NCBI GenBank assembly: GCA_028282385.1
Contig: JANQIB010000098.1
Span: 4,502 to 68,501 of the forward strand
Source of the DNA: Alphaproteobacteria bacterium
GTDB lineage: Bacteria > Pseudomonadota > Alphaproteobacteria > Micavibrionales > Micavibrionaceae
Length of the DNA: 64,000 nt
Direction: 5' to 3'
Positions within the stretch are counted from its first letter, which is position 1, and each line of letters begins with the position of its first letter. The notes beneath the pieces are model-generated. The model had not been told where the DNA came from and did no database searches. It saw only the letters and a program-made list of their open reading frames with translations. Shown in pieces: positions 9,008 through 45,065 of the stretch. Made by a program: the position numbers and the translations under genes.

Positions 9008-9009
9008 GT

Positions 9010-9501: not shown

Positions 9502-9511
9502 TTAAATTTTC

Positions 9512-9835: not shown

Positions 9836-9849
9836 TCATAAATTTCCTT

Positions 9850-11340
9850 TTAGACTTCAAATTCCGTTTTAGCTGAGTGCATTTGTCCGCCGCCTTGCCA
9901 CTGAAGACGGTCCGTGTGATAACTTCGCTGAACACGCACAGATTGCTGGGACAGGGCACCAGCAACCGCATCAAGCCCATCATCCTTCTGCCCTTTAAGA
10001 CCAGGGCGCCAATCCTGCATTTCAGTTATAAAGGGCGTTTTGTAGACACGTTCATGTACATGCAGCGCGCGCGCAGCGAGCACCGCATCAAAACCTTCTA
10101 AAATACGCAAATCTTTTGCCCGTGATGAATTGACCTCTGTAACTGCGCACGGGACTTTTTGCTCTGCCATCTGCGTACGCAAAATGGCCGGCAAAAACTT
10201 TCCAATGCCGTTTGTTTCTACGGTAACCGAGGGAATAAAATGCTCCCGCGCAATTCGTGCCACCTGCATGGACTGACTTACCGCTTCTTCTTCAGCCAAA
10301 GCCGGATCGTGCCGTAAATAAACCAGATCATGTAAATAATACTGCCCGACTTCATCACAAAAAATCACAGCCAGAACGGACGCATCTCCTTTTGCGCTTC
10401 CAAAAGAAGGATCCCACCAGGCCGAACAAGACACGAGACGCCGCCCTTCCAAACGAAGCTGCAATGTCTGCTGACTTTCTGAGGATTGCAGCTGCGATCC
10501 GTAACGCCTGAGTAAATTCGGATCCAGGCGGCTTTCACTCACATTGAGCGGCTCCAACAACATTTGTGAGGCAAATTTTTGCGGACCTGTCTGCGTTTTT
10601 ATCTGCTTAATATCTTGAAGTGTAAATTTCTCAGGCCAGCTACTTTCTCCATCCTGATCAATCAGGGGGATAACAAGGCGCTTATAATCTTTTAAAAAAA
10701 TGTCTTCTATTCCAAGTTCCGGCTTTGGTGCATCAAGATAAATAGACTCCCATGTATGAGGTGTACCTAAATAAATCTGTACGCCGCCCGGAACAAGAAT
10801 ATAAGATGTCTCTTCAAGCCGTTCTCTAAGATCTTGCCGCTTCTCCGGAGTCTCGCATGTATTAGGAACCTCAACATCATCACAAATGATAATATCGGCC
10901 CGAAGTCCTGTAATATTGGAATGAATACCGCGCGCAATCACCGAAGGGTCACGCTGGACCTGCCCCCGCTTAACGGTCAGACGATCTGCCGCCCACTCCT
11001 CCTTTTTCTTCGGAATGAGAGGCTTCGTTAAAGGATGTGTCTGGATGATCTTGCGAATATTGCGGACCATCTTGGACGCCAGCGTCTGTTCGGCCGCTAA
11101 CACCAGGATACGCAAATCCGGATCCCTGTAGAGCAGCCATGCCGAGAACAGAGTGGTGAGCGACGACTTGCCGCTTCCGCGAAAGGCCTTCAGCAGTAGC
11201 CGCGTCTCTCCATGCGCCCAACACACTTCGAACCAGCGCGCGATTCTGAAGTGAATCAGGGGTGTTGAATAATTTTGTGTCCTGTTCCATAGCGCTAAGA
11301 ATACTCCAAAATCGACTTCTTTTGTAGTGTTTTTATCCAT
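9850..11340 (-). CDS. phage terminase large subunit
   Basis: 496 aa. Walker A is FRGSGKSS and Walker B is ADIIICDDVE, with a C-terminal RNaseH-like nuclease region (AWWDPSFGSAKGDASVLAV). Confidence 0.85.
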   Translation of the reverse strand: MDKNTTKEVDFGVFLALWNRTQNYSTPLIHFRIARWFEVCWAHGETRLLLKAFRGSGKSSLTTLFSAWLLYRDPDLRILVLAAEQTLASKMVRNIRKIIQTHPLTKPLIPKKKEEWAADRLTVKRGQVQRDPSVIARGIHSNITGLRADIIICDDVEVPNTCETPEKRQDLRERLEETSYILVPGGVQIYLGTPHTWESIYLDAPKPELGIEDIFLKDYKRLVIPLIDQDGESSWPEKFTLQDIKQIKTQTGPQKFASQMLLEPLNVSESRLDPNLLRRYGSQLQSSESQQTLQLRLEGRRLVSCSAWWDPSFGSAKGDASVLAVIFCDEVGQYYLHDLVYLRHDPALAEEEAVSQSMQVARIAREHFIPSVTVETNGIGKFLPAILRTQMAEQKVPCAVTEVNSSRAKDLRILEGFDAVLAARALHVHERVYKTPFITEMQDWRPGLKGQKDDGLDAVAGALSQQSVRVQRSYHTDRLQWQGGGQMHSAKTEFEV

Positions 11341-11348
11341 ATTAGAAA

Positions 11349-11657
11349 CTAATAATCTTTCTCTGTGCCAAGCGTTTTCATAGCGCCATCATATTCCTGC
11401 CTTGCTTCTGACAAACTTGCTTTGAGCAGCATATTATCTTCCATGCTTTCAAGGTTTTCATATTCAGCCAGCTTCAATAATAATTCGAGATGAGCTAAAG
11501 CTGCCCGGCAGGCTTTATGATGCTCACCAAACTCTTTAGACTCATTTGGAGCGATTTGACCTGAAAAATTCCGGTAAGAATTTACCGCTCTTGAAATTGC
11601 AACCGGTAAAAAGGTTGCAATTTTCCTGCGCTCCTGCGCATCAATCCGATCATCCAT
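11349..11657 (-). CDS. hypothetical protein in the small-terminase position
   Basis: 102-aa helical ORF immediately upstream of the large terminase, as T7 gene 18 is. Assigned by position only. Confidence 0.3.
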   Translation of the reverse strand: MDDRIDAQERRKIATFLPVAISRAVNSYRNFSGQIAPNESKEFGEHHKACRAALAHLELLLKLAEYENLESMEDNMLLKASLSEARQEYDGAMKTLGTEKDY

Positions 11658-11667
11658 ACTGAAAGCC

Positions 11668-13692: not shown

Positions 13693-13715
13693 AATGATCT
13701 CCTCTATAATATAAG

Positions 13716-14255
13716 TTATAACAGGCTAATAATGGAATTCGCGTTTCCTAAAAGCCCTTGCGCAAAGGAATTTGCATTTGAAACATTGCTCAGTTTTTGA
13801 CGCTCTTTTAGTTGTGTTTGCTGTAAAACATTCAGACGTTTACGCTGGGCCAGGTCAGTATCCAGGGCGTTGAGACGCAAGTTATCAAGCGCTTCACGCT
13901 CCTGCCTCTCCTCTTCTGATTCTTCAAACAAACCAAGCAAAACCGCCTGGGCTGAACCACCCGCATTTGTATCAATACCGCTTGCTCCAAATTTTGCGCG
14001 CTGACGTGCTGTTGCCCGCTTTAATGCATCACGACGTTCTTTTTCCGCCGATTCTGATTCAAGCTTGATTTTTTCACGTTCAAGCGCTGCGTTTTCTTTA
14101 GCTACACGCAACTCCGCCTGTTGTTTTTGTTGAAGCTCTTTAAGCGCAAGATCTTGCGCCTCACTCTGATCATTATACCCACTCACCGTATCAACAAGTC
14201 CTGACACAATGCTAAGCCCCTGTATCACCGGGGCGATACCACTCAAACCGGCCAT
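13716..14255 (-). CDS. coiled-coil virion protein candidate (internal/ejection protein position)
   Basis: 179 aa. A Gly/hydrophobic N-terminus is followed by a long charged coiled coil. It sits between tubular B and the tailspike. Confidence 0.35.
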   Translation of the reverse strand: MAGLSGIAPVIQGLSIVSGLVDTVSGYNDQSEAQDLALKELQQKQQAELRVAKENAALEREKIKLESESAEKERRDALKRATARQRAKFGASGIDTNAGGSAQAVLLGLFEESEEERQEREALDNLRLNALDTDLAQRKRLNVLQQTQLKERQKLSNVSNANSFAQGLLGNANSIISLL

Positions 14256-14277
14256 ATCAATCTCCTTTGATTTACAA

Positions 14278-16176
14278 TTAGTCGTTAAATTTAATTTCCG
14301 CAGTCACGGATAAAAGCGTGAAAGGGTAAGGGATGCTCTGCTCGATTTCCCAAAGAGCATCGACACCGTTTTTCTGCCAGCCAAGTGAACGAACAGCAAT
14401 ATCCCCACTGATTACCGGCGGCGGCGCATCCAGAATTTCATCTTCACCAAAATCTTTCAGCGCGATATCCTGAAGCCCTCTTCCCGTATCAAGGCGTAAA
14501 GCCTGCGTTTCCTTCAAACGGAAAATCGCTTCGATCAATCTGAGCTTAATACCAAATCCGCCTTCTCCAGCAGATGTTGGCGGCAAAGGTTTAATCTTGT
14601 GCGTATAAGACAGGCCGATTTCAACTTTCAAAGCAGGCTCTGATAAAATCACTGCACCTGAAGAAACAGCTTGATCATCCTGAACAATATCATCTGCGAT
14701 GATAGAAACAGTTTGCCCTTCAAGATGATCTAAGCCGGACCATGTTGCAGTTGCCGTTCCAACCTCTCCCGTTAAAGCCGAGTCTAAAGTAAGAGCATCA
14801 TCAAATAGCTCAATCATGTAAGAGCCATCTCGCTCTACTAGAAGATAAACATCATCTCCAACCACAGAAACCGATTTCACATTTCCCTGTGTTTCATGAA
14901 GAGTCCAGGCTGCGACCTGCTCCGCCCGATAAACAGTGAGTGTTGCAAATTTTCCATCTTCCCGAACAATAAAGAGAAGCCGGCGCGTTGCATCAAAATC
15001 CTGATCCACCGGATCAATAATAATGTGCCGGGAAAGCAAAGCCAGATCTGTCGCCTGATAAGCTTGTTCAATATCGGTATAAAGAAATTCACGAATTTCA
15101 TTCTTATTCCGGGCAACAAACAAAGTTGCACCATCGACCGTTACCGGCGGTATATAGCGGTCAATCACAGATCCAACACGTGTCTGTCGATTAAGCTGAA
15201 CCGTTTCCGGAGTTAGAGGATCTCCAGTAACCATCCATTCCGCACCAGAGGTAAAAACCTGCAAGTGACGGCCGGAAAAAATACCCCGGATCGCGTTGAC
15301 CTGATCAGACAAAATCGCAAATTCAATAGATTCATCATCCAACCCCTCGCCAATATCAAAATTGAAGAGATCTCCAGATTTTGAAAACCAAAGCCGGTTC
15401 GGAAGATCACGAGAACCTCCAATCACCAGCCTATCCTGGTGAAAGGCAACCGAAACCGGATAACCGCGCACCGGGCTAAAGGCCTGCTCCTGCCAGTCAA
15501 TCGTTGCATCCGTTGAGAGCAAATCTTCAATCGTTGTGACTGTCACAACAGTCGGTGAATCATAACTTGTAATTTCAACTTCTTTTCCTCCAACGCGCAG
15601 ACGGGTTCCCGCATGCAGCGGATCAAAACTATCTGCAGATGCCGTCAGTGTAATTGACCCTGTGGTGCCACTTGGCGTTAAGGTTACCGTGCTTTCTGCA
15701 AATTTATAATAAGGCTGATAGACGATATTCTTATCCGTAAAAAAATCCCAATCCAGAAGGGAAAATGTTCCCCCGCTATCACGGATCAGTCTTTTCGGCG
15801 CATAATCAGGATGTGTCATCAAAAGCGTATCGGCGCTCTGTGTCCAGGCAACCTGACTGATTGTACTCGCCGGCCATGGACTTGAAAGCGTACTTACCTT
15901 AACACCGGAAGCATAAATATCAATTTGGCTGTCCGTTAGCACAAGCAGATAAGTTTGCTGTGTGTTGAATTCAAAAGCGATTAAACGCCCGTCCCCGGCC
16001 GCCGTATCGATATAAGAGAGCCCTGCGCGGCGGGTTACACCGCCGGTTGGAAAGATAAAAAGGTTGCGCAATTCCTGCGCACCGTTTTCATAGGCGCGGA
16101 GATCACCCCGCCCCAAAAGCTCGGGTGAAACCTCCCCGGCGGTAAAATTGGTTTTAACTTGCCTGATCCGTGTCAT
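14278..16176 (-). CDS. tail tubular protein B-like (nozzle)
   Basis: 632 aa. The N-terminus (VKTNFTAGEVSPELLGRGDLRAYENGA) parallels the T7 gp12 N-terminal pattern, and the gene follows the tubular A gene. Confidence 0.55.
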   Translation of the reverse strand: MTRIRQVKTNFTAGEVSPELLGRGDLRAYENGAQELRNLFIFPTGGVTRRAGLSYIDTAAGDGRLIAFEFNTQQTYLLVLTDSQIDIYASGVKVSTLSSPWPASTISQVAWTQSADTLLMTHPDYAPKRLIRDSGGTFSLLDWDFFTDKNIVYQPYYKFAESTVTLTPSGTTGSITLTASADSFDPLHAGTRLRVGGKEVEITSYDSPTVVTVTTIEDLLSTDATIDWQEQAFSPVRGYPVSVAFHQDRLVIGGSRDLPNRLWFSKSGDLFNFDIGEGLDDESIEFAILSDQVNAIRGIFSGRHLQVFTSGAEWMVTGDPLTPETVQLNRQTRVGSVIDRYIPPVTVDGATLFVARNKNEIREFLYTDIEQAYQATDLALLSRHIIIDPVDQDFDATRRLLFIVREDGKFATLTVYRAEQVAAWTLHETQGNVKSVSVVGDDVYLLVERDGSYMIELFDDALTLDSALTGEVGTATATWSGLDHLEGQTVSIIADDIVQDDQAVSSGAVILSEPALKVEIGLSYTHKIKPLPPTSAGEGGFGIKLRLIEAIFRLKETQALRLDTGRGLQDIALKDFGEDEILDAPPPVISGDIAVRSLGWQKNGVDALWEIEQSIPYPFTLLSVTAEIKFND

Positions 16177-16195
16177 ATTTACTCCTTTTCACACA

Positions 16196-16222
16196 TAAAA
16201 AAACCGCCCTCAAAGGGGCGGC
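16196..16222 (-). terminator. rho-independent terminator after 16247..16654
   Basis: On the minus strand: ccgcccc-tttg-agggcgg followed by TTTTTTAT. Confidence 0.75.
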
Positions 16223-16246
16223 TTAACAAAAATAATTTTTTTATAC

Positions 16247-16654
16247 TTATTTTTCACGCTCAATAGCTTTATCGGCCTGCTCAAAGGTCGCAATGAACAA
16301 ATCTTTAAAATAAATTTTCAAATCTGCGACAATATCTGATTGAACATCTTCGACTGTACTATCTGGACTAGAATTATGCTCATACTTGTTTTGATAGACT
16401 TCTTCGGCATACCTACGAATATATTGATCGCATTCTTTTATGGAATATTTTAGAGACCGGTTTAAAAGCACATCACGGTCTACAATCTTCGCTAGATTGT
16501 CTGACATAAAATCAACGGCTTTTTCTTCTACACACAATAACGATTTCTGCCTATAACCAGTCATATAAATAAGATCAGGGCGCAAAATATGAATAAGCGC
16601 CATTGTGTAGATAAACAAAAAAATCATAAATATTGAAATGGATTTTTTATTCAT
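16247..16654 (-). CDS. small N-terminally anchored protein, partner of the 180-aa PG-binding protein (immunity-like candidate)
   Basis: 135 aa. The TM segment is ISIFMIFLFIYTMALIHIL. The start overlaps the upstream stop (ATGA-type coupling at 16651-16654). The region is AT-rich by eye. Confidence 0.4.
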   Translation of the reverse strand: MNKKSISIFMIFLFIYTMALIHILRPDLIYMTGYRQKSLLCVEEKAVDFMSDNLAKIVDRDVLLNRSLKYSIKECDQYIRRYAEEVYQNKYEHNSSPDSTVEDVQSDIVADLKIYFKDLFIATFEQADKAIEREK

Positions 16655-17193
16655 ATAACACCATCATCATTTTCTCTCTGATGTTTAATAATTTCTTCCA
16701 TAATCTTAAATTGAGGATTCAATTTTCCCCCACTTTTTAAGAAGTCAAAAATCTTCTTATGGTCTTTTAGTTGCTCTATAAGATCTTTGACTTTTTCATT
16801 ATCTTTTAGATTATCCATTGTTTCCTTTAGAGAATCAAAGAAATTATCATCCTTACCAAAATCCGGCTTTCTTTCCGGCAAAGGCGGTTTCGATGGCTTC
16901 TTTGGTGGAATGGGGGGAAGTTCAGATTCAGGTGTATCATCGCTTTGAGTTTGTTTTAACACTGTATTCAAAGCAACTTCTGTTTCCCCGCCGGGGTTCA
17001 TAATCCGGTCCGGTTTAAGATCATTGTCATACTGAAAAGCTAAAATCGCATCGTCGAGCTCCCGGTCGATAATCCCGTTTTCAACCGGGCGGTTATAATA
17101 GCCGGCCTTCGAAAAAGCCCGCTTTGCCTGCAATACGTCTTCATCATCATTCTCCAGGTTATTTCCGACAGGGCGGTTTATTTTAAAACGCAT
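16651..17193 (-). CDS. peptidoglycan-binding-module protein with a PPLPERKPDF junction and a short variable C-terminal domain
   Basis: 180 aa. PVGNNLENDDEDV...GYYNRP..GIIDRELDDAILAFQYDNDLKPDRIMNPGGETE is PG_binding_1-like and paralogous to modules in 21466..23475. Confidence 0.6.
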   Translation of the reverse strand: MRFKINRPVGNNLENDDEDVLQAKRAFSKAGYYNRPVENGIIDRELDDAILAFQYDNDLKPDRIMNPGGETEVALNTVLKQTQSDDTPESELPPIPPKKPSKPPLPERKPDFGKDDNFFDSLKETMDNLKDNEKVKDLIEQLKDHKKIFDFLKSGGKLNPQFKIMEEIIKHQRENDDGVI

Positions 17194-17195
17194 TC

Positions 17196-17765
17196 CTACC
17201 CCCTCACATCAATCAACGTAAAGTTTTCAAGCCTGTTCGGACTATCCTGCTGCGCATCAACCTGACGCGCGGCGGCAAATTCCTTTTCAGCCATCCGGGT
17301 TAGCGTTTCAGCGCGTGATGTGCTTTCGGTAACCGGAATACAAAACTCGGCTGCCAAACGGGCTATCAAAGCCGTATCAAAGAACGGTGGAAACTCTTCC
17401 TCCTGAGGCTGATAAATATAAGTTAAAATAACTTCATCCGCATTAGCATGCAGCTGTCCTTGTAAAATACGGTAATGAAGCCCACGCCCTTTACCGCCAT
17501 TGCCGGCAGAAATGGCACGTAGAAAATCACTCGGCAGTTGAAAAGCGTTTTGATAATCTGCAAGCGGACTCTCGCTCAGCTTGTTTAACTCCACCTGCCC
17601 TGTTGCAAATGTCCAGGGATAAGCCGATAACAAAGCATCGCGCGCAGGCGCATAAAGAATCGAAGCAATTTCTGATTCTGCTGTGCCGTCATCAAATGAA
17701 CTAATCGGGGCGGCGCCAAGACGCACAAGCGCACGGCTGCAAAGCCCAACATCGTTGAGTGCCAT
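17196..17765 (-). CDS. tail tubular protein A-like (adaptor)
   Basis: 189 aa. MALNDVGLCSRALVRLGAAPISSFDDGTAESEIA...YPWTF parallels the T7 gp11 N-terminal pattern. Confidence 0.6.
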   Translation of the reverse strand: MALNDVGLCSRALVRLGAAPISSFDDGTAESEIASILYAPARDALLSAYPWTFATGQVELNKLSESPLADYQNAFQLPSDFLRAISAGNGGKGRGLHYRILQGQLHANADEVILTYIYQPQEEEFPPFFDTALIARLAAEFCIPVTESTSRAETLTRMAEKEFAAARQVDAQQDSPNRLENFTLIDVRG

Positions 17766-17789
17766 ATTTTTTCTCCTGTTGTTAATGAA

Positions 17790-17822
17790 TAAAAAAAGCG
17801 GCCTTATGGCCGCTTAAAAAAT
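17790..17822 (-). terminator. rho-independent terminator after 17839..18243
   Basis: aagcggcc-ttat-ggccgctt flanked by A and T runs. Confidence 0.8.
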
Positions 17823-17838
17823 ATTGGTTTCAAATTTA

Positions 17839-18243
17839 TTACGCTGCCAGCAAGGGTTCGTAACGTGGAGCGTTTTGCATTGAAGTTCCAAGGTTATAGT
17901 TTCCTGATCCCTCTCCTGCATGAGCTCGACGAAAATCCGTCATCATAAAATCTGCAACTTTAATCTGCGTAGTTTGCAAGTTTTGTGAATGCTCTTCTTT
18001 CACTTTTTCATTAGAATTAAGCATGTCATATACTGCCCATGCCTGTATTTCAGTGCCCCTAAAGACTGCTCCCTGAGGCGTATAAATAACATTCAAAATG
18101 CCGTGACGAGCAAAAGCTTCAGAAAGCTTTTCTGTTGGTTCTCTTTCTTCTTCAAAAGAAATATCTTCCGGACGCACACTGGCAGGAAACCCGCCGCTAT
18201 GCGGAATTGAATAATAACCCGTCTGCAATGCCTGCACAGACAT
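17839..18243 (-). CDS. hypothetical protein (moron-like, bracketed by terminators)
   Basis: 134-aa ORF with no recognisable motif. Confidence 0.4.
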   Translation of the reverse strand: MSVQALQTGYYSIPHSGGFPASVRPEDISFEEEREPTEKLSEAFARHGILNVIYTPQGAVFRGTEIQAWAVYDMLNSNEKVKEEHSQNLQTTQIKVADFMMTDFRRAHAGEGSGNYNLGTSMQNAPRYEPLLAA

Positions 18244-18329
18244 GAATATTTCACACCCTTTTTGTTTTTAGTTGATGATTTTCTAAAATATCAGCATTAC
18301 TAAAGACAAATTTACTTTCTAAACACTTG

Positions 18330-18381
18330 TTAAATAAAAGAAATTTCCGCCCTGACCCAACAGGGCCAAAAGGCGGAAATC
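18330..18381 (-). terminator. rho-independent terminator downstream of the capsid gene plus 79-aa gene
   Basis: On the minus strand: atttccgcc...ggcggaaat stem followed by TTCTTTTATTT. Confidence 0.65.
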
Positions 18382-18494
18382 CCGGTTAATACAAAACGGA
18401 CGCTTTCTCAAACGCGCCCAAAGACTGCTTTAGGGGGGTTCGTGAAGGGGAGGAAAAGTAGAACACTCACCTAAACAGTCCGCACACCCAACGA

Positions 18495-18734
18495 TTAGGC
18501 GTACACCGCAATCGTCACTGCGCCGCTTGTAATATCGGTCACAATATAAAATTTTGTGGCCGGCGTGCCGTCTGTATCAACATTCGCAATGATGAGGTCG
18601 TTGACATTCATCATATCGGCTGCGTTATCAAAGTAGTTAGCTGTGGTGACAGCATCATCAGCTGTTGTGTAATGCCACAGCGTAAAGTTGTTCGCATAAG
18701 CGAGCACACTTAAATCAGAAAGTTTTAAAGCCAT
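18495..18734 (-). CDS. small protein following the capsid gene (possible head decoration or minor capsid protein)
   Basis: 79-aa ORF starting 30 nt after the capsid stop. Assigned by position only. Confidence 0.35.
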   Translation of the reverse strand: MALKLSDLSVLAYANNFTLWHYTTADDAVTTANYFDNAADMMNVNDLIIANVDTDGTPATKFYIVTDITSGAVTIAVYA

Positions 18735-18764
18735 TGCTTATCTCCTTTTATGTTAGCTGTGGTT

Positions 18765-19607
18765 TTAAACAGGGGTTTCGTCACAATCGATAACGACAAT
18801 TCCTGTATCATCGACAAGAGCAGCGCCCTGACTCATCATATTGTTGACGAAATGCGCCGCACGATCTCCATGCCAGGTTACATCTGTTTGAACATCAGAA
18901 CCTGACGCATGGCCGATAGCCGTTTTGTGATAATAGAAACAGGAACGCACACCACCAGCATCTACCGGAAGTCCGGAATGCGGGATCCAGATCGTTCCAA
19001 GCCACATCTTGGCCTGTGTGATACTTGAATATGGAAGCTCCGTATTGCCAATATAGTCAGCATTGACGAACTCTTCGATTTGCAGCAAATCGCTCCATTG
19101 TTTCCAGCCGACGACTGCAAAACGCTGACCGTCATCCGGAACATCGGTATCCCCGAAAATTTCAAATGCTTCGAGGACTTTATCTTTCGTCAGACCAGTA
19201 TTCGCATCGGCAATTGTATTCGTAGACGCCGTTGCAAGCGCATCAATAACCAACTCATCGGTTTTACGGCCCAGCGCATGTGCACCGGCAGACGCAATCA
19301 CCTGACGTTCGTCATGGTTAATTTTCAGCTCATCCATTTTATCAACCCAGTCACCGGCATAAAAATCTTCAAGCAGACATTCAATGCTGGAGTGAGCCAG
19401 GTTCATCACAGGAACCATTCCGTGTGTTGACTTGGTCGAAGCCGTTCCCTTACCGACTTTTTGGAAAGTCGTTGAGGCGCCTTTAACATTGCCGACAGTA
19501 CGCACAGTGTTCCTAAGCTTGGACCCCTGGCGTTGATAGGCTTCGTGCACTTCGCGCTCGAACTGCTTGACGAAGGCCTGATCAATAGTGACAGACATAT
19601 TCTTCAC
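18765..19607 (-). CDS. major capsid protein (T7 gp10-like, short form)
   Basis: 280 aa. FVKQFEREVHEAYQRQGSKLRNTVRTVGNVKGASTTFQKVGKGTA mirrors the gp10 pattern F..EV..A....L...VR...G...F...G...A. The late YYHKTAIGHASG resembles FMHRSAVG. Confidence 0.7.
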   Translation of the reverse strand: MKNMSVTIDQAFVKQFEREVHEAYQRQGSKLRNTVRTVGNVKGASTTFQKVGKGTASTKSTHGMVPVMNLAHSSIECLLEDFYAGDWVDKMDELKINHDERQVIASAGAHALGRKTDELVIDALATASTNTIADANTGLTKDKVLEAFEIFGDTDVPDDGQRFAVVGWKQWSDLLQIEEFVNADYIGNTELPYSSITQAKMWLGTIWIPHSGLPVDAGGVRSCFYYHKTAIGHASGSDVQTDVTWHGDRAAHFVNNMMSQGAALVDDTGIVVIDCDETPV

Positions 19608-19926
19608 CTTTCGTAAAAGTTAAAATTTAGAGAAGTTCAGTTGCACGGGACTTTGGGTTGGCAGCCAGCAAATGCGACCGGCCCGTCACGGCAAACAGGT
19701 CTGCCCACAGGCGGCAATCATCTCAAAGAAGAGAAAAACCGTTTTCTGATCAGCAGATATAAATAGGGAAAAACCGCTACGTCGGCGGAATGGCAGAAGC
19801 CAAAAAGACGCAGTTATGGCGTTGATAACTCTACTTATAGGAATAATTTCTTATTTTGTCAAGAAATAAATTGCATTTTTTGCAAAAATCTTTATATATA
19901 TACATAATTAAAGATGGAGAGAGAAA

Positions 19927-20313
19927 ATGTTTACATCCCTCGCACGCGTCCTGAAAACAAGGGACTTTGAAAATCAGGCATCGAACCGTCGCATCGCGCC
20001 CCGGCGTGAGGTCGACCAGTGCGTTGGCATGATTGAGGGCAAAAACTATCCGGTCGAAAACTGGAGCGATACGGGCATACTCTTTGCCGGTAACGATAAA
20101 CTCTTTTCAATCGGAGAACCAAAATCCATCGACCTGAAATTTAAACTTGCCGAAAAAGTGATTACAGTTTCGCACCGGGGTAAGATCGTCCGCAAAGCCA
20201 AAAATAAATTTGCGATCGAATTTGAACCTCTCACCCGTGATATTCAAAACAAATTTCAACAAATCGTCGACGATTTCGTCACCCAGGAATTTGCCGACTC
20301 TCAGATGGTTTAG
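19927..20313 (+). CDS. PilZ domain protein (c-di-GMP receptor candidate)
   Basis: 128 aa. RRIAPRRE fits the RxxxR motif and NWSDTG fits the D/NxSxxG motif with appropriate spacing. It is on the opposite strand to the phage genes and has an AT-rich upstream region. Confidence 0.7.
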   Translation: MFTSLARVLKTRDFENQASNRRIAPRREVDQCVGMIEGKNYPVENWSDTGILFAGNDKLFSIGEPKSIDLKFKLAEKVITVSHRGKIVRKAKNKFAIEFEPLTRDIQNKFQQIVDDFVTQEFADSQMV

Positions 20314-20536
20314 TTTCCTCTCTAATCATCCGTCCCGTGGCATCGAAGATTGGTTTTTCTTTTGGAAGAGGCGGCGTGTCTTCGCTTTCCTCAAACGCGA
20401 AAGTGCCGTTTGAAGTAAAGACGGAGTTGCTTTCACTGCGCTCAACCCTGCCCGTTTCGGCAGGACTATTGGCATCAGCTTGTTGTTTTGCCTTTAACGT
20501 TTCAAGCGCCCCAGCACCAGATGCCCCGGTCTTGTT
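20279..20536 (-). pseudogene. orphan fragment of the 669-aa gene (central region through PPLPKEKPIFDATGRMIR), without a start codon
   Basis: Hand translation gives NKTGASGAGALETLKAKQQADANSPAETGRVERSESNSVFTSNGTFAFEESEDTPPLPKEKPIFDATGRMIREETKPSESRQIPG*. It is preceded by an in-frame TAA and has no ATG. Confidence 0.8.
20322..20512. repeat. direct repeat copy A (191 bp, 8 mismatches versus copy B)
   Basis: Aligned by eye against 22160..22350. There are no indels and the offset is 1838 bp. Confidence 0.9.
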
Positions 20537-20566
20537 TTATACCTAATTATTACTTATTCTACATTT

Positions 20567-21007
20567 ATGTTCAGAATAATTTTTATTGCTCTTGTGTTTT
20601 TTTCTTCTGCTACGCAAGCTGCAGAAGATTTCTGGGACAAACCGCCACACCCTAACGGGTGGTATGGTTATGATGAAACACTCCCTGATCTGCTGAACAT
20701 CAAAGGCTTAACCTACCATGAGGCAAGGCCCATTATCATTGGTGCCGGCTGGGAACCATTGCAAACTCTTCAGGAGGGCACACATGATTACGAACAAGGT
20801 ATAACCCTGTCCGGAGATGGCCCAAAGTTTTGGAACAAAAGTTATTATGAACTGCAAACATGCACTGGATCAGGTATGGCATACTGTGCTTTTCTTTTCC
20901 AAAACAAAAATGGCGACCGGCTTCGTATCGTAACTAAATATGAAGAGCATGAAGAATATTCATCTTTTGCTAAAGTCGCAGGCTACAGATTTATGCCCCA
21001 AGACTAA
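20567..21007 (+). CDS. secreted hypothetical protein
   Basis: 146 aa with the signal peptide MFRIIFIALVFFSSATQAAE. The gene is AT-rich and on the opposite strand. Confidence 0.5.
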   Translation: MFRIIFIALVFFSSATQAAEDFWDKPPHPNGWYGYDETLPDLLNIKGLTYHEARPIIIGAGWEPLQTLQEGTHDYEQGITLSGDGPKFWNKSYYELQTCTGSGMAYCAFLFQNKNGDRLRIVTKYEEHEEYSSFAKVAGYRFMPQD

Positions 21008-21204
21008 TTTTTCTCCAGAAAATCCTTTAAAGTTTTGAAATCAGTCAGCGCTTTATTGTTTAAAACGCCATCATAACGACTTTTATTTGAAGCATCTGGT
21101 GGAAGTGATGCCCATTCACTGGCTAATTCTTCTATCAATTTTTTCGTGCTGATTTTACCGGATTTATATTTATCAAACCCTCTGTATTCCAAAAGCCTAT
21201 ACAC
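21004..21204 (-). CDS. small ORF resembling the C-terminal part of a lambda-R-type (GH104) lytic transglycosylase; probably a gene remnant
   Basis: LASEWASLPPDASNKSRYDG..NKALTDFKTLKDFLE compared with lambda R CSNIWASLPGAGYGQFEHKADSLIAKFKEAGG. The N-terminal catalytic part is absent. Confidence 0.3.
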   Translation of the reverse strand: MYRLLEYRGFDKYKSGKISTKKLIEELASEWASLPPDASNKSRYDGVLNNKALTDFKTLKDFLEKN

Positions 21205-21252
21205 TTCATATCTTTGATAAAAAAGACAGCCTAAAAATCAGCGGTACACTTT

Positions 21253-21453
21253 CTAGTAAGCTAAAAACAATCCCACAACTATTGCTAAAACCATAAGGCT
21301 CAGAATACATCCGGTAAAGGCTCCTAGAAAAACACCTCGCCAAACAGGTTCCTGTTTCCTTGCAAAAGAAACACAACCGACTAACGCCCCTACAACCATC
21401 AAGAAGAAGAGAAAGAAAGCCGTTAACATTTCAATATCAAAAGAGCCATCCAT
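21253..21453 (-). CDS. two-TM small membrane protein directly downstream of the 669-aa gene (immunity-like candidate)
   Basis: 66 aa with two hydrophobic helices (FFLFFLMVVGALVGCVSF and GAFTGCILSLMVLAIVVGLFLAY). The gap after the upstream stop is 12 nt. Confidence 0.45.
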   Translation of the reverse strand: MDGSFDIEMLTAFFLFFLMVVGALVGCVSFARKQEPVWRGVFLGAFTGCILSLMVLAIVVGLFLAY

Positions 21454-21465
21454 ATTCTGAAACCC

Positions 21466-23475
21466 TTATTTGTTTTCTTCAGCATCCTCCCATGTTAGTC
21501 TTGGATTTACAAGCTCGCCTCCTTTGATCTGGACAGTACCTGTCACTTTTTGTTGCCATTGAGAGTTTATATCAAAACTTTTTGCGCGCCCTTCTTTTTC
21601 AAGAATGGTGGCCCCTCCTCCTCCACTTTGCAAAGGGTCAAAATTGTATTTATCTGTCCATTGATGAGTGACCGTACCATCAATCAAAATAGTATTTCCT
21701 TTTCTTTTTACTTTAAAGTCACCTCCAGACTTAACAGAACTTGTTCCTGTTGCCAAAGCTTCATCCAAATCCCCCTTCAAAAGATGACTTCTGGATAGAT
21801 CTGCATTACGAATCATCGTTTTAATTGGAAAATTTCCAACTTTATAATCCCAATTATCTTTCACTTCCATTACTTCATCCTCTTTCATATTTAACAATTT
21901 AGAGCCTATACCTTTCTTGTCTGTGAAAGATTTTGTGAATCTATCTCGGTTAACTCTTTCTCCATTACGCACAAAAAGCTTTTCACGAACCTGATCTCGA
22001 CTAAGCGCCTTATCTTCTCCTGATCCGTCTAAAAAATGCTCCAGATTATCTGCCGCTTCATTTAAACCTTTTTTATGTCCTTGATCTACATATTCTCTAT
22101 AAACATTTTCAATTGTGTCCAAATATTTTTCTTTATCGTAGCCTCCAAGCTCCTCCTTCCTAATCATCCTTCCCGTAGCATCGAAGATTGGTTTTTCCTT
22201 TGGAAGAGGCGGCGTGTCTTCGCTTTTCTCAAACGCGAAAGTGCTGTTTGACGTGAAGACGGAGTTGCTTTCACTGCGCTCAACCCTGCCCGTTTCGGCA
22301 AGACTATTGGCATCAGCTTGTTGTTTTGCCTTTAACGTTTCAAGCGCCCCGGACGGTCCGCCCGTTTCACCGCCGCCGTCAAACAGGCCAGACGCCGCAC
22401 TGCCCAAACTCCCGGCCAGCCCCTGCGCCGCCTGTGCCCCCGATGCAACGGCAGGCAGGATTTCATTGATTTTGGTCAGCACATCACCGTCGCTCTCCAG
22501 AGCGTCTTTCGTATTAAAGAAAGCCTGCGTGCCGCTTAAGGCCTGGGATGCAATCCCGGCAATCGGCCCGCCAACCGCGCTCAATCCCATCGAAACAACA
22601 GGCGCAAAGGCGTTAATCTTATCCGCTGTTGAACCTTCACCTTTAACGGCATCGATAACACCTTTAACAAAAGACGCAGCTTGAGCAAAAGCTTGCTGTG
22701 TTTTTTCCTCGCCTTGCAGGCGCATAACATTTTTTATAGCTTCAATACCCTGCTCCGTCTCACCGCCCGGGTGAACCAGTCCATCCTCTTTCAGACCCAG
22801 TTGACGTTGAATATTCTTAATAGCATCGCTCGTTTCCCGGTCAAGAAAGCCTGTCGGGTCACTGAGTTTATCTTTTGGCAAAAGTCCAAACTCTCCCAGC
22901 CTGCCCTGAAGGCCGATCACATCACGCTTGCCATTTTCAAGGTTATTTCCAACAGGACCTAAAAGTATGGGTTCCCTGACATTTATCAGGATATCGTCAT
23001 CTTCTTCAAAACCATTTTCCGGCTCACGTGGGAGATAACCGTTTTCTAAAATACGATCATACCAACCAGTAATACCTTCATCCAAATCATCATCTTGTTT
23101 TTCCATGGTGCGCAACGGTGGTGGTTTATCCGTATCAAGCATAATTGAATGATGTGGCTCATCGAATTGTGTAGATTCGTCTGCCTCAAGTGTCTGCATT
23201 GTCTCCCCATCTGGCTTGATGATCCCGTCAACTTTCAAGCCCTTATCTTTTTGATATTGTTTGATACCATCGAACAGTGCTTCGTCCGTATAGGGCGTGA
23301 TGCCGTAATCGGGGAGATCGTAATAACCGCGCGAGCGTAAAGCGTCTTTAATTTTCAAAACATCTCTACCGCGCGCCGCGCTATTGGAAGAAATAATATT
23401 ACTTATTCTTAACATTGAAAAAAACCTCTTAAAAAAATCCCCCGCGCAGGGAATGCGCGAGGGGAAGTTGCTCAT
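21466..23475 (-). CDS. modular protein: two peptidoglycan-binding modules, a Gly/Ala-rich region, a PPLPKEKPIF junction and a ~230-aa C-terminal domain of unknown function
   Basis: 669-aa ORF. An AAGAGG Shine-Dalgarno favours the internal ATG at 23415 (649 aa). The PG_binding_1-like segments are GRDVLKIKDALRSRGYYDLPDYGI..ALFDGIKQYQKDKGLKVDGIIKPDGET and PVGNNLENGKRDVIGLQGRLGEFG...SDAIKNIQRQLGLKEDGLVHPGGETE. Confidence 0.65.
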   Translation of the reverse strand: MSNFPSRIPCAGDFFKRFFSMLRISNIISSNSAARGRDVLKIKDALRSRGYYDLPDYGITPYTDEALFDGIKQYQKDKGLKVDGIIKPDGETMQTLEADESTQFDEPHHSIMLDTDKPPPLRTMEKQDDDLDEGITGWYDRILENGYLPREPENGFEEDDDILINVREPILLGPVGNNLENGKRDVIGLQGRLGEFGLLPKDKLSDPTGFLDRETSDAIKNIQRQLGLKEDGLVHPGGETEQGIEAIKNVMRLQGEEKTQQAFAQAASFVKGVIDAVKGEGSTADKINAFAPVVSMGLSAVGGPIAGIASQALSGTQAFFNTKDALESDGDVLTKINEILPAVASGAQAAQGLAGSLGSAASGLFDGGGETGGPSGALETLKAKQQADANSLAETGRVERSESNSVFTSNSTFAFEKSEDTPPLPKEKPIFDATGRMIRKEELGGYDKEKYLDTIENVYREYVDQGHKKGLNEAADNLEHFLDGSGEDKALSRDQVREKLFVRNGERVNRDRFTKSFTDKKGIGSKLLNMKEDEVMEVKDNWDYKVGNFPIKTMIRNADLSRSHLLKGDLDEALATGTSSVKSGGDFKVKRKGNTILIDGTVTHQWTDKYNFDPLQSGGGGATILEKEGRAKSFDINSQWQQKVTGTVQIKGGELVNPRLTWEDAEENK
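22160..22350. repeat. direct repeat copy B (inside the 669-aa gene, codons ~375-439)
   Basis: See copy A at 20322..20512. Confidence 0.9.
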
Positions 23476-23480
23476 GAAAA

Positions 23481-24116
23481 TTAACTATAGAGTTTCTGGA
23501 AGCCTTCTGTGACCTTGGCAATGAAAGACGGATCTTTATCTCTCCAGTAACGCGGATCGCGCATCATCGATTGCAAGTCGAGCTCGGCGCCGTCTGGGCC
23601 ACTTTCGCCTTTAGAAGTCTCTAGACCAGGCTCCTCACCCTTCATCATATTATGAAGTGCGAGTATGCCCTCAAAGGAGCTGGCCAACGTATCGAGGACA
23701 TCCTCAGGCAGTTGTTTTTGACCAAAGGCTAAAAGCTGCCGTGACATTTCAGCCCATTTTTCGGGCCCACCAAAATGGTTGACAAGTTTTTCAATTTCCC
23801 GGTCAGCTTCGTAATCGGAAGCCATTTGAACAATCATCGGCACCATTTTTTCTGCTGCCAAATCGTAGATAAACTGCACTTGATCTTGGGTAAATCCTTT
23901 CTGATGAAGCCGTTCATTCAACTCCTCATCAGCATCAAACAGACCGTGCTTACAATCCACACAATATTCTTTGGCGCTTTTGGGAGGCCGGGGCTGACGT
24001 GAAAATCTCTGTTCAAGTTCGTTATAAGATTTTACAAGGTTATCAAGATTTACATTACCTGTTTCCGGATCTTTAAACTTTTCCGGAACAGAAGTTTCTA
24101 AAAGTGTTTCAGTCAT
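23481..24116 (-). CDS. capsid assembly scaffolding protein
   Basis: 211 aa. VPEKFKDPETGNVNLDNLVKSYNELE is the typical podovirus scaffold N-terminus. The protein is acidic and helical and lies downstream of the portal gene. Confidence 0.65.
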   Translation of the reverse strand: MTETLLETSVPEKFKDPETGNVNLDNLVKSYNELEQRFSRQPRPPKSAKEYCVDCKHGLFDADEELNERLHQKGFTQDQVQFIYDLAAEKMVPMIVQMASDYEADREIEKLVNHFGGPEKWAEMSRQLLAFGQKQLPEDVLDTLASSFEGILALHNMMKGEEPGLETSKGESGPDGAELDLQSMMRDPRYWRDKDPSFIAKVTEGFQKLYS

Positions 24117-24146
24117 TATTTTCTCCTTTGATTGAAATATTAAAAT

Positions 24147-24428
24147 TTATGAATTCCGGCCACGGTCAATCATGCGCATGATGGTAGCAACCAAGGTACG
24201 CTGCCCTTCGGAAAAACGAATTTGTTCATCCGGCGTTGAGCCGCCCTGAGCGCGCTGAAATGTTATCACCTGGAGCCAGGCCAGTGCTTTTTTGCCATCT
24301 TCCGTAGAAAAGGTTCGGGTCAAAATCCGTTCGATTTCTTTTTGCTCAAGGCGTGACACATGAGCCGTATAGGTAAGCCCCTTTACGGCTTCTGATAAAT
24401 CTGATCTTCGCTTATGAAATAGTCTCAT
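24147..24428 (-). CDS. small conserved phage protein following the portal gene
   Basis: 93 aa. The start overlaps the portal stop by 17 nt. It has a FSTEDGKKALAWL...EGQRTLVATIMRMI pattern. Confidence 0.4.
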   Translation of the reverse strand: MRLFHKRRSDLSEAVKGLTYTAHVSRLEQKEIERILTRTFSTEDGKKALAWLQVITFQRAQGGSTPDEQIRFSEGQRTLVATIMRMIDRGRNS

Positions 24429-25944
24429 TTTGCACCTCCTGTGTTGGTATAATTTCGGATAGAGGAATTTCTTTTTGAATTAAATCACTTGGTACACCCA
24501 GCGCCTCTCCAAGAAATTGGGCCGCCCTTGGCATATTGACGCTCAGAGCTGCTTGAGGCCCCATAGCAATCACTGATTCAATCCATGTGAGAGTATTTTG
24601 AACGGATCGTTGCCCTTGAGCACGAGCAAGCGGCGAACGATAATCCAGAACAACATAACGGCCATCAAGCGCAATGTCAGGAATTTCACCGCGCCTTTTC
24701 AGAATATTGAAAGCTCTTTTCACAAGCGGCGTTAAAAGCTCTGATTGTAAGCGGCCATAAGTCGCTCCCAAGATCAGCGCCATTTCGGCTGAACGCTCAA
24801 GCACTTCAGTTGCCGTCATACGCCGGTCGTTCATTTGGCCTAACTTATCAGCCAATAAAGCATGGCGAATCCGGCTACGCAGATCATTCAGAACAAGTTC
24901 GGATACATCAAAACGCGCCGGCATTTCCAAAGGCTTCAACCCTTGTGAACCCACGGCTTTGGGAATAATAGCTCCCGGAACCAGTTCAATATTTGCTGGA
25001 TTCAAAACCCCGTCATCATCAGCCTGCCAAATTCCTGTTACAGAAATTGAAGCATTTTTAAGAATAAGTTCAACAACCTTATTGGCTGTCTTGATATCTG
25101 GTAAAGCTTTCATCACTGGAGAACGTCCGTAGATCTCTCCCGGCGATTTCATCCAGCGAAAAGAAATTGCCGGATTATCACCAAATCGGCCTTGTGCTAA
25201 AAGCGCATTCTGGCCCCCCTCAAAAAGAAGCGCAGTATAATTATATACGCCTTCTTCTGGCAGAATAAATTCTAGAACCTTAAAGCGTGATTGCGTATCT
25301 TTTTCACCACTACCTATTATTGACGGCGAAATAACGGCAAAAGGATAGCGTGATTTTATTTGTGTTAGCGTGAGTTCGATTTCACGGAATATCGTATCAA
25401 GAAACCCATTTTCGCCTTCTTCTAAAACAGCATTTTGCAGTGGAACAGCCGAAAATTTAAAGGCAGATAAAGATCCTGGCTCCGCCTCTTCAAACATAAG
25501 TGTTGCGGTTCCGCCAACAACAAGATCCAGGAAACATTGGTGCAGCTCAACGCTAAAATTTGAATGATCAAAATGATCTTGAATAATCTTAGCACTCTCT
25601 TCCAGGACTGGCGCCAGCTTTTCAGCTTCCGCCGGAGACAGATCAGGTCCTGGCTTAAAACCAAACCATTGTGTCCAGGGAGGTGTTAAATTACCCAGTA
25701 AACTTGCTGCAAGCTGATCAACCGCATCCAGCGCCGTACCATCATAAAGTTTGTCTGTACGCTTTCCGCCTATAACAGATGACCCAATAAAATCACCGCG
25801 CTGGGGCAGAGCATAGTCGTAGCATTCCTGCCAGTGTGTTTTCCAAGTGTTATGGCGCTCTCGTGATTTATTATAACGTTCTATTAAATCACTATAATCT
25901 TTCAAATTGTCCTGGCGGTGTTGCTCTAAATTAACATTATTCAT
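24412..25944 (-). CDS. portal (head-to-tail connector, T7 gp8-like)
   Basis: 510 aa, positioned upstream of the scaffold gene. The N-terminal helical YNKSRERHNTWKTHWQECYDYALPQR pattern is typical of podovirus connectors. Confidence 0.7.
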   Translation of the reverse strand: MNNVNLEQHRQDNLKDYSDLIERYNKSRERHNTWKTHWQECYDYALPQRGDFIGSSVIGGKRTDKLYDGTALDAVDQLAASLLGNLTPPWTQWFGFKPGPDLSPAEAEKLAPVLEESAKIIQDHFDHSNFSVELHQCFLDLVVGGTATLMFEEAEPGSLSAFKFSAVPLQNAVLEEGENGFLDTIFREIELTLTQIKSRYPFAVISPSIIGSGEKDTQSRFKVLEFILPEEGVYNYTALLFEGGQNALLAQGRFGDNPAISFRWMKSPGEIYGRSPVMKALPDIKTANKVVELILKNASISVTGIWQADDDGVLNPANIELVPGAIIPKAVGSQGLKPLEMPARFDVSELVLNDLRSRIRHALLADKLGQMNDRRMTATEVLERSAEMALILGATYGRLQSELLTPLVKRAFNILKRRGEIPDIALDGRYVVLDYRSPLARAQGQRSVQNTLTWIESVIAMGPQAALSVNMPRAAQFLGEALGVPSDLIQKEIPLSEIIPTQEVQNETIS

Positions 25945-25948
25945 ATTT

Positions 25949-26224
25949 TTACTCTCCTAATAAACTTTTTCGTGATGGCGCCTCATCCGATAACCCAAGC
26001 ACCCCCCTAAACCCGCTTAAAATTGTTCCAATACGGCTACGGTCACGCCTTAAAAGATTCTGCGTTCGGTTTTCAGATTTTTGTTCATCAGTTAAAACTG
26101 TCGTATCTTCAGCTTCACTTGAAGTATTTGAAGATTCTACCGTTGTCTCTGTTGATGTATTTTGCGGCACATAAACTATTTGAGGCTGCGTAGGGGCCCG
26201 CGGGGTTATGCTTCTACTTCCCAT
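25949..26224 (-). CDS. small Ser/Thr-rich phage protein
   Basis: 91 aa. The C-terminal RRDRSRIGTILSGFRGVLG...KSLLGE resembles the RRGR.STILT motif of small podovirus virion proteins. Confidence 0.35.
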   Translation of the reverse strand: MGSRSITPRAPTQPQIVYVPQNTSTETTVESSNTSSEAEDTTVLTDEQKSENRTQNLLRRDRSRIGTILSGFRGVLGLSDEAPSRKSLLGE

Positions 26225-26235
26225 TTTTTTTCTCC

Positions 26236-26655
26236 TTATACTGTTTCGAATTGAAATGATTTCACCTGTTTAAGGTGTTTATAGAGCTGCCAAGGCGTAT
26301 AAATCAGGCGCTTATGAACGCCTATCAAACGTTTTACAGCCTCAACGCACGTAAAAATCATAAACGGCGCAGGCTTTTTTAGATCTCTGCAGATCGGTGT
26401 TGAAAGGACTGTTTGGCCTTGTTGCTCAAGCCAGCCCGGTAAATCAAAGTTGATCGGCACATGATGATGGATTGCCACTTCAGTCAGATGAGATAAAGGA
26501 TCTATACTCGCCCAACGCTTTCCATCATTCAGCAATACATAGCAATGGCGAAATCCGGGTTTTAAAATCTTAAGCCAGCCAATATCTGTCCGTCCGCTAA
26601 AGACAACCCAGGCCTTCTGGTTCAACAAAAACTTATCAGAATAATCATCACTCAT
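26236..26655 (-). CDS. hypothetical protein (second gene of the cluster)
   Basis: The ORF opens at 26712. The ATG at 26655 (MSDDYSDKF) overlaps the upstream stop (TATGAGTGA), which indicates translational coupling. Confidence 0.45.
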   Translation of the reverse strand: MSDDYSDKFLLNQKAWVVFSGRTDIGWLKILKPGFRHCYVLLNDGKRWASIDPLSHLTEVAIHHHVPINFDLPGWLEQQGQTVLSTPICRDLKKPAPFMIFTCVEAVKRLIGVHKRLIYTPWQLYKHLKQVKSFQFETV

Positions 26656-27136
26656 AACAAGCTCCATAAATATGTGATGAATTCTGAGCCTGATCGTAAA
26701 TAACCGCACCATGAATCCAATATTTGTTAGGATTAGGAGCTGTTAGTTTTTTAAAACGCACGATTTTTTTTTGAATAAGCATTGGCTCCAGCCGTTCGAA
26801 TGCTTCTTCCCAGAGCTTATGTGCCCTGACCTCTTTGCTTCGATTAGGATCAGGCGCCATCTGCCGCCGGCCATAATGGCGAAGAACCAGGAGGTGATCC
26901 ATGCTCAACCGCCTGGATCTATAAAGCCGGTTAAGGATATTCAAAATATCACCGGGCTCACATGGCCGGGGAGTAGCACTCAGGCCACTTACAAACCTGG
27001 CTCCATCGACTCGCGCCTGCTGCGCTGTTATGAACCAAAACCATGCCTCTAACGCATTTTCAAATGGCACAGATTCCTGGTTCACGCATGATTTTGGGAT
27101 ATATTTGCTCTTATCACTCATTTCTACATATTCCAA
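26648..27136 (-). CDS. hypothetical protein (first gene of the cluster)
   Basis: 162-aa ORF next to the divergent control region. I could not assign a family. Confidence 0.45.
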   Translation of the reverse strand: MEYVEMSDKSKYIPKSCVNQESVPFENALEAWFWFITAQQARVDGARFVSGLSATPRPCEPGDILNILNRLYRSRRLSMDHLLVLRHYGRRQMAPDPNRSKEVRAHKLWEEAFERLEPMLIQKKIVRFKKLTAPNPNKYWIHGAVIYDQAQNSSHIYGACYE

Positions 27137-27143
27137 TTTTTAG

Positions 27144-27174
27144 CAAAAGCAGGATTTATGTTCTGCTTTTGTTC
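27144..27174. promoter_or_regulatory. candidate operator: GTTC-N7-GTTC (alphaproteobacterial SOS-box form) overlapping a 9-bp inverted repeat
   Basis: GTTC at 27160-27163, tgctttt, then GTTC at 27171-27174. The inverted repeat is CAAAAGCAG (27144-27152) and CTGCTTTTG (27163-27171). The site lies 24-38 nt upstream of the first cluster gene and about 85 nt upstream of the divergent repressor. Confidence 0.5.
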
Positions 27175-27258
27175 TATTTATGGGGCAACTTCACGCCCAT
27201 GTCAAGGAATTTTTTCCTAATGCTGTAAGAGACGTAGGATGATATACCTACAGACATT

Positions 27259-42795: not shown

Positions 42796-42800
42796 TTTAA

Positions 42801-45059: not shown

Positions 45060-45065
45060 GAGATA

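Follow-up and report, generated by a model that had tools for sequence, protein, structure and literature searches.

A predicted LexA operator at the head of a podovirus-type particle and lysis cluster in Micavibrio-like Alphaproteobacteria

The divergent control region and the cluster behind it

The 64-kb stretch of contig JANQIB010000098.1 analysed here (hereafter the window) comes from a Micavibrio-like alphaproteobacterium and carries a divergent control region, in which g1, the first gene of a phage-derived cluster, faces the gene of a CI/LexA-like regulator with a helix-turn-helix (HTH) and a Peptidase_S24 domain (hereafter the S24 protein). Between the two genes lies a direct repeat, GTTC-N7-GTTC (hereafter the box), which is not a chance occurrence and is a genuine conserved regulatory element; most likely it serves the SOS repressor of the host, LexA, as an operator, placed in the putative promoter of the cluster. 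The box is made up of GTTC at 27160–27163, tgctttt at 27164–27170 and GTTC at 27171–27174, letters and coordinates being exactly those given in an earlier note on this DNA, and on the strand of the cluster genes it reads GAAC-N7-GAAC. Table 1 collects the features of the region.

Table 1. Features of the control region, of the internal promoter and of the cluster (positions count from the first nucleotide of the window; AA, amino acids)
Feature	Position	Strand	Evidence or remark
Predicted LexA-type operator, direct repeat GTTCtgcttttGTTC	27160..27174	no strand	Sequence, matrix score, conservation, fixed distance to the −35
Putative −35 hexamer TTGACA (TGTCAA on +), leftward cluster promoter	27200..27205	−	Conserved gtcaag
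Putative −10-like hexamer CATAAA	27177..27182	−	17 nt after the −35; 4/6 match to TATAAT, without final T
Perfect 9-bp inverted repeat, possible leader hairpin of g1, lineage-specific	27144..27171	no strand	Sequence, folding
O1 palindrome AAGGAA-tttt-TTCCTA, candidate S24 operator	27204..27219	no strand	11/12 match to TAGGAA-N4-TTCCTA; overlaps the −35 by 2 nt
O2 palindrome TAGGAT-gata-TACCTA	27235..27250	no strand	10/12 match; 8 nt upstream of the S24 start codon
O3 palindrome TAGGAA-taat-TTCTTA	19838..19853	no strand	Inside the internal minus-strand promoter upstream of the capsid gene
HTH-S24 (CI/LexA-like) regulator, 215 AA	27259..27906	+	Pfam Peptidase_S24 E = 3.3e-12; PHROG transcriptional repressor E = 2.1e-11
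g1, first cluster gene, 157 AA, helical, no assigned function	26648..27121	−	733 homologues, all unnamed
g2, 139 AA, no assigned function	26236..26655	−	Invariant His37, Cys38, Asp44, Asp52, His64, Cys103
Rest of cluster	8432..26224	−	Broken by two + strand genes at 19927–21007

The cluster fills 8432–27121 of the minus strand (18.7 kb) and encodes a podovirus-type head, tail and lysis module. Its front consists of g1, g2, a 91-AA open reading frame (ORF), the portal gene (Head-tail_con, E = 8e-144) and genes for a Bbp19-like protein and a T7-type scaffold; the middle encodes a peptidoglycan (PG)-binding protein of 669 AAs, the capsid protein (Phage_capsid_2, E = 7.5e-81) and tail tubes A and B, and the end a T7 gp14-like protein, a fibre, the large terminase, a cell-wall hydrolase and a holin that matches Pfam GTA_holin_3TM. 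All genes recognised between 8432 and 27121 are structural, packaging or lysis genes, with no integrase, replication or lysogeny genes among them. The two proteins at the front resemble nothing that we could name. The product of g1 has no match in Pfam, PHROGs or NCBIfam and no homologue in 50,697 phage records, and its AlphaFold2 model (predicted local distance difference test score, pLDDT, 74.5) found no match with E < 0.2 when compared by Foldseek with the PDB and BFVD. The g2 model (pLDDT 81) has no significant match in the PDB; its resemblance to 3kw0 (E = 1.3) is non-significant and no evidence that g2 encodes a cysteine peptidase, for which it gives at most a weak lead.

The S24 protein belongs to a family of 7,964 proteins (at E ≤ 1e-5), mostly 55–66% identical and about 215 AAs long; we class it as HTH plus Peptidase_S24, its N-terminal Xre-like HTH match being under the Pfam cut-off (E = 9.4e-4). 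One scan of species-representative genomes with this family gave a set of 80 loci, mostly from metagenome-assembled genomes (MAGs) of Micavibrio-like bacteria, with Rhodospirillales (including Magnetospirillum sulfuroxidans J10, our L077, and Caenispirillum bisanense), some Hyphomicrobiales and one Acetobacteraceae MAG. The relatives are numbered L001–L084, and L001 and L002 are the closest to the window. Among the carriers of the cluster are the complete or near-complete Micavibrio-like genomes GCA_028289285.1, CP066681.1, OZ244161.1 and M. aeruginosavorus ARL-13. The divergent arrangement of g1 and the S24 gene, no more than 900 nt apart, is kept in 62 of the 80 related genomes, in support of the layout described in the earlier note; g1 itself is present at 65 of the 80 loci, and metagenome contigs show the same g1/S24 synteny. 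With its constant chromosomal context (62/80 species-level genomes) and its lack of an integrase/replication module the cluster does not qualify as an inducible prophage. Across the loci its capsid proteins are 66–95% and its portal proteins 54–82% identical to those of the window, and the best isolated phages, Pelagibacter podophages, have portals that are 31–37% identical; capsid and portal are far closer among these hosts than to any isolated phage (≤37%). From these comparisons the cluster looks like an undescribed, vertically kept and domesticated podovirus-type element similar to a gene transfer agent (GTA), and a literature search on podovirus-type GTAs in these lineages found no description of it.

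The S24 gene begins at the ATG at 27259 of the plus strand, as the earlier note had it. The g1 ORF could start at the TTG at 27136, which that note used, or at the ATG at 27121; since g1 homologues begin M-S-D-K in alignment, ATG 27121 is the likelier start, and the spacer would therefore be 137 nt long and not 122.

The box as part of the putative cluster promoter

The window has two perfect matches to GTTC-N7-GTTC where 1.53 are expected, so the bare pattern is not rare genome-wide. Among 200,000 shuffles of this particular spacer, 568 (just 0.28%) contain a perfect box, which bears out the earlier contention that its presence there is unlikely to be accidental. The other perfect match (29328–29342, minus strand) falls in the last codons of nadK, the NAD kinase gene, and is kept in only one of 46 orthologues; we rejected it as a regulatory site, and it provides an internal control for accidental matches.

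The box at g1 behaves very differently from that control. It is found upstream of the orthologous g1 in about 56 of the 65 cluster-bearing species-level genomes: 51 of them have a perfect box in the orientation of the window no more than 160 nt upstream of g1, three, all Rhodospirillales, have it in the opposite orientation, and two beyond these 54 (L059 and L060) have boxes that border on the estimated start of g1. When 54 unique spacers are aligned on the box, the next conserved blocks are a moderately conserved −10-like block (t.aTt.atg) and gtcaag, the complement of CTTGAC, which is kept in nearly all orthologous spacers. Of 52 unique spacers, 40 have 27 nt between the end of the box and GTCAA, and another 10 have 26 nt. 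Read along the gene strand, the order in the window is TTGACA, 17 nt, CATAAA, 2 nt and GAAC-N7-GAAC; the box thus starts 3 nt downstream of the putative −10 and would therefore cover the transcription start. Box and −35 also stay with g1 when the region is broken up, as in L049, L050 and L075, where insertions part the cluster from the S24 gene, and at the 15 loci where the S24 gene has no cluster beside it, the 300 nt upstream of that gene contain no box. In the Rhodospirillales L077, L082 and L084 the repeat is inverted and the spacers are unrelated, so that only the two GTTC tetramers and their 7-nt spacing are retained; in L077 the inverted box lies the same 26 nt from the −35. Because the inversion keeps nothing else, the box fits an operator that acts by occlusion better than it fits a strand-specific signal.

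The direct repeat GTTCN7GTTC is the published LexA (SOS) box of Caulobacter and occurs also in related bacteria (PMC9578287; PMC12700426), and alphaproteobacterial LexA, an S24-type dimer, reads direct repeats (PMC9578287). We scored the window with a weight matrix made from 32 Caulobacter boxes in promoters that carry LexA chromatin immunoprecipitation (ChIP)-seq peaks (PMC12700426, S6 table), from which this lineage's own box may differ. At 18.93 bits the window box is the best among the roughly 128,000 positions of the two strands, and it exceeds the median of the genuine Caulobacter boxes (17.57 bits). Core and spacing are identical to those of the Caulobacter crescentus operator, and the box shares with Caulobacter examples such as GTTCTTGTTATGTTC and GTTCCACTTTTGTTC a T before the second GTTC and a T-rich spacer; it stands 38 nt from the downstream coding sequence, within the Caulobacter range of 0–107 nt. 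The 7-nt spacer, which played no part in finding sites, was scored separately. Compared with random spacers of intergenic composition, that of the window box comes in the top 3.2%, and the median spacer score is 3.10 for the 24 unique cluster boxes, as against −0.04 for 23 other occurrences of GTTC-N7-GTTC in the same DNA (Mann-Whitney p = 3e-4). Matrix rank and conservation together thus agree with the alphaproteobacterial SOS box that the earlier note had recognised, and they place it on the promoter of a particle and lysis cluster; we conclude from the sequence comparisons that the box is most likely a LexA operator.

Several observations weigh against this conclusion. About nine of the 65 cluster-bearing genomes have no perfect box. 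Searching by tblastn with the E. coli LexA and RecA proteins turned up neither gene in the window or at the 84 loci, and recN, which is in the window (56599–58248), has no box upstream. (It lies only 17 nt from the preceding bamD-like gene, and a weak match, the third-best matrix site of the window, TTTCCAATATTGTTC, 13.07 bits, at 58215–58229 of the minus strand, is in its first codons.) The preference for T-rich spacers could in part reflect AT-rich intergenic DNA, despite the composition-matched control. A strict sigma-70 scan calls no promoter in 26900–27500, since the −10 candidate has no final T, and we infer both the promoter and its transcription start from conservation. Finally, some genomes (L077, L074, L058 and L062) have extra boxes around the cluster, which may be further LexA sites but would also fit a binder dedicated to it. 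The perfect boxes of this kind in L077 (5028, 5897 and 6654) are found in front of the portal gene and directly behind the stop codon of the S24 gene; L084 has one at 3425, L074 has one at 9321, in front of a cluster-related gene for PG binding that has been displaced, and a second box is present in each of L058 and L062. Literature searches on Micavibrio LexA found nothing to set beside these results.

The S24 regulator, its palindromes and other explanations of the box

Aligned to E. coli LexA, the S24 protein of the window keeps the catalytic serine (Ser138), but it has Gln at position 175, where the catalytic Lys (E. coli K156) should be, and Thr-Lys (IHFTQTKQ) in its linker in place of Ala-Gly (GFAQAG). 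In an alignment of E. coli LexA with an 85-member sample of the family, Ser is kept in 83 of 85, Lys in 81 and the Ala-Gly of the GFAQAG linker in 78. Degenerate copies are present in about 8–10 of the 85 relatives (for example L008, L019, L021, L065 and L075), a distribution that suggests repeated conversion of the regulator to non-cleavable repressors. Because both the catalytic Lys and the Ala-Gly site have been lost, self-cleavage is unlikely for the protein of this genome, and the induction through autocleavage of the 215-AA protein that the earlier note had envisaged is not supported here; such cleavage is plausible in most relatives.

The region upstream of the S24 gene has its own conserved elements. 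Palindromes of 16 bp stand at fixed offsets from the S24 start, −51 to −55 for O1 (at most loci) and −15 to −24 for O2, and sites of the form TAGGAA-N4-TTCCTA are 29-fold enriched over background. They are retained at most S24 loci that have no cluster. Only three sites in the window (O1, O2 and O3) match the form in at least 10 of 12 positions, and all three are in control regions of the cluster; in a subset of genomes there is a further palindrome inside the g1 promoter spacer itself. O3, which most Micavibrio-like loci keep, takes up the spacer of a minus-strand promoter close to consensus, TTGACA (19862–19857), 17 nt and TATAAG (19839–19834). This promoter is about 230 nt upstream of the capsid gene and divergent from a gene (19927–20313) for a PilZ-domain protein of the type that binds cyclic di-GMP, which is embedded in the cluster; the arrangement hints at an input from that nucleotide. 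The leader between the promoter and the capsid start (19608–19833) contains a conserved block, CGTTTTCTGATCAGCAGA (19741–19758), that it shares with the leader of L001 (2173–2390) and that matches no Rfam family. Given the linkage of the palindromes to the S24 gene and their palindromic form, the S24 protein is predicted to bind them, and it is more likely to do so than to bind the 9-bp inverted repeat that overlaps the box.

That repeat, whose presence and coordinates were given correctly in the earlier note, has the arms CAAAAGCAG (27144–27152) and CTGCTTTTG (27163–27171), 10 nt apart. We rejected it as a conserved hairpin or operator, since neither L001 nor L002, the closest relatives, has it, just two of 65 unique orthologous spacers contain a perfect 9-bp inverted repeat of any kind, and the median folding z of fifty orthologous g1 leaders is about 0. 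The suggestion that it is a repressor site or a functional hairpin in the 5' untranslated region is accordingly not supported, and the repeat, not being conserved, is probably incidental or a recent local feature. Neither is it an intrinsic terminator. It was flagged as terminator-like on the plus strand, where 0.7 such sites are expected by chance and no gene lies upstream, and on the g1 mRNA strand the stem is followed by CUAAAAAUU and not by a U-run.

Could something other than LexA account for the box? It might be bound by a factor dedicated to the cluster (the S24 protein or the product of g1 or g2), acting as a repressor or feedback regulator of the cluster promoter. Such a factor would explain why the box goes with the cluster and is missing at S24 loci that lack it, and why the surroundings of the cluster genes contain more than one box in several genomes; moreover, no classical SOS promoter of this lineage among the window and the 84 loci is available to display its LexA motif, and S24-type dimers are able to read direct repeats, as alphaproteobacterial LexA does (PMC9578287). 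We nevertheless consider a dedicated binder unlikely. The motif fits the ChIP-backed Caulobacter matrix down to its spacer preferences, and g1 and g2 have no recognisable DNA-binding fold. As to the S24 protein, its own upstream region keeps a different sequence, the TAGGAA-N4-TTCCTA palindrome, with or without the cluster, and this is the signature expected of an autoregulatory operator.

The other explanations look to the promoter or the RNA. That the repeat is a core-promoter, initial-transcribed-region or RNA leader element, affecting promoter strength, mRNA stability or translation, would agree with its fixed register with the −35 and with its place in what would be the first nucleotides of the g1 leader. 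A strand-specific element of this sort could hardly be turned around as in the Rhodospirillales, at an unchanged distance from the −35 in L077; the orthologous leaders have no conserved folding, and no Rfam family matches anywhere in the window, so we regard this explanation as very improbable. A further explanation is that the inverted repeat has gained a function of its own in this lineage, for example as a hairpin that stabilises the g1 mRNA or competes with LexA. Its perfect 9-bp stem folds to −10.6 kcal/mol (z = −2.6; three of 200 shuffles are as good), a perfect 9-bp inverted repeat with a 3–20-nt loop arises in only 1.05% of shuffled spacers, and L049, with a box variant like that of the window, also forms a short hairpin that uses the box spacer. 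The rarity of such repeats among the orthologues, their absence from the two closest relatives, the flat folding of the leaders and a terminator-like call that is within chance expectation all speak against it, and we think a recent function of the hairpin improbable. LexA thus remains for us the most likely protein to bind the box.

Rightward of the spacer are the S24 gene, pyrE, the NAD kinase gene, purC, a gene for the alphaproteobacterial ATPase zeta subunit (30582–30914), bolA, a glutaredoxin gene and rodA/mre genes; there are no tRNA genes in the 64 kb. NCBI taxonomy places Micavibrio in the Bdellovibrionota, whereas the zeta subunit in the window is the alphaproteobacterial one and the GTA literature treats Micavibrio as alphaproteobacterial; the 'Pseudobdellovibrionaceae'-type labels on some MAGs (L009, L016, L018, L052, L069 and L071) should be read with this in mind. 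Elsewhere in the window, and unrelated to the control region, 38109–50103 brings together a cyclic nucleotide monophosphate-binding EAL phosphodiesterase, an adhesin-like protein of 1107 AAs, a CHASE2 adenylate/guanylate cyclase and a type I secretion system (HlyD, an ATP-binding cassette transporter and a TolC-like protein).

A model of control and its relation to known systems

The reading that we regard as probable is one of dual control, in which LexA acts on the box and the S24 protein on the palindromes of a chromosomally fixed, phage-derived cluster; which protein sits on which site we infer from motif and linkage. The leftward promoter would drive g1, g2 and probably the genes behind them, and LexA on the box would block initiation there until its RecA-stimulated cleavage after DNA damage. 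The S24 protein would bind O1, at the edge of the cluster promoter's −35 and within the promoter region of the S24 gene itself, as well as O2 just before the S24 start codon and O3 within the internal promoter upstream of the capsid gene. DNA damage could also lead to cleavage of the S24 protein in most relatives, whose copies retain Ser, Lys and Ala-Gly. In this genome, where the S24 copy has lost Lys and Ala-Gly, the damage input would come through LexA alone, and a product of the LexA-controlled g1/g2 operon may act on or relieve the local repressor; this last step is speculation, since neither protein has a recognisable family or fold. More tentatively, and with somewhat less than an even chance in our estimation, the box may be the SOS input of an undescribed family of domesticated podovirus-type particles, a second GTA (unrelated to that of Rhodobacter capsulatus, RcGTA) or a killing particle, inherited vertically in Micavibrio-like bacteria and Rhodospirillales and controlled by a LexA operator and a CI-like repressor, with some of the repressors being non-cleavable and released through g1/g2.

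The putative LexA site differs from the operators of the Caulobacter crescentus SOS regulon in its predicted target, which is not a repair gene but the promoter of phage-derived genes for particle structure and lysis, and in its host, a Micavibrio-like lineage whose LexA regulon is undescribed. The lambdoid immunity region offers a parallel in layout. There, too, an HTH-S24 repressor gene is divergent from genes that it presumably controls, and repeated palindromes (of 16 bp here) flank the repressor's promoter region and abut the opposing promoter; most members of the present family also keep Ser, Lys and Ala-Gly. The differences are that the region described here has no cro-like gene, integrase or replication module, that its repressor family also exists without the cluster, that the promoter on the lytic side has an additional, host-type LexA box, and that the window copy of the repressor has lost the cleavage residues.

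LexA-gated prophages and bacteriocins include coliphage 186 with its tum gene, CTXphi with RstR and LexA, and the pyocins with PrtR and PrtN; in these the phage-derived module for killing or particle production is under the joint control of a LexA site of the host and a repressor encoded by the element. In phage 186, Tum is made from a LexA-controlled operon and relieves a repressor that is not cleavable. The early operon of the present cluster could do the same for its own non-cleavable repressor, although this is speculation: no homologue of Tum, PrtN or RstR was found here, and g1 and g2 cannot be assigned to a family or fold. As such LexA-gated elements are well known, the operator is not in itself a new principle. 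What is new is its setting, on a podovirus-type cluster found at one and the same chromosomal position in dozens of species-level genomes. Should the cluster produce particles, it would represent an independent domestication event with a simple switch, namely one LexA box, three palindromic operators and one repressor that exists in cleavable and naturally non-cleavable forms. In that case it would also provide an experimental handle on how hosts couple gene-transfer or killing particles to DNA damage, and a defined operator for a very large uncharacterised family of alphaproteobacterial HTH-S24 regulators (>7,900 members).

Like RcGTA, the cluster has a fixed place in the chromosome, encodes head, tail and lysis proteins but nothing for replication or integration, and has a GTA_holin_3TM holin. 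A link of the GTAs of Rhodobacter capsulatus and Dinoroseobacter shibae with an SOS regulator has been reported or predicted (PMC6473078), and large RcGTA clusters are reported to be absent from Rhodospirillales and Micavibrio (PMC5721377). The two systems differ in their architecture and apparently in their wiring: RcGTA is siphovirus-like and the present cluster is of podovirus type (T7/BPP-1/HTVC010P-like), and whereas RcGTA is controlled through CtrA/GafA, control here appears to be direct, by an operator on the cluster promoter together with a CI-like repressor.

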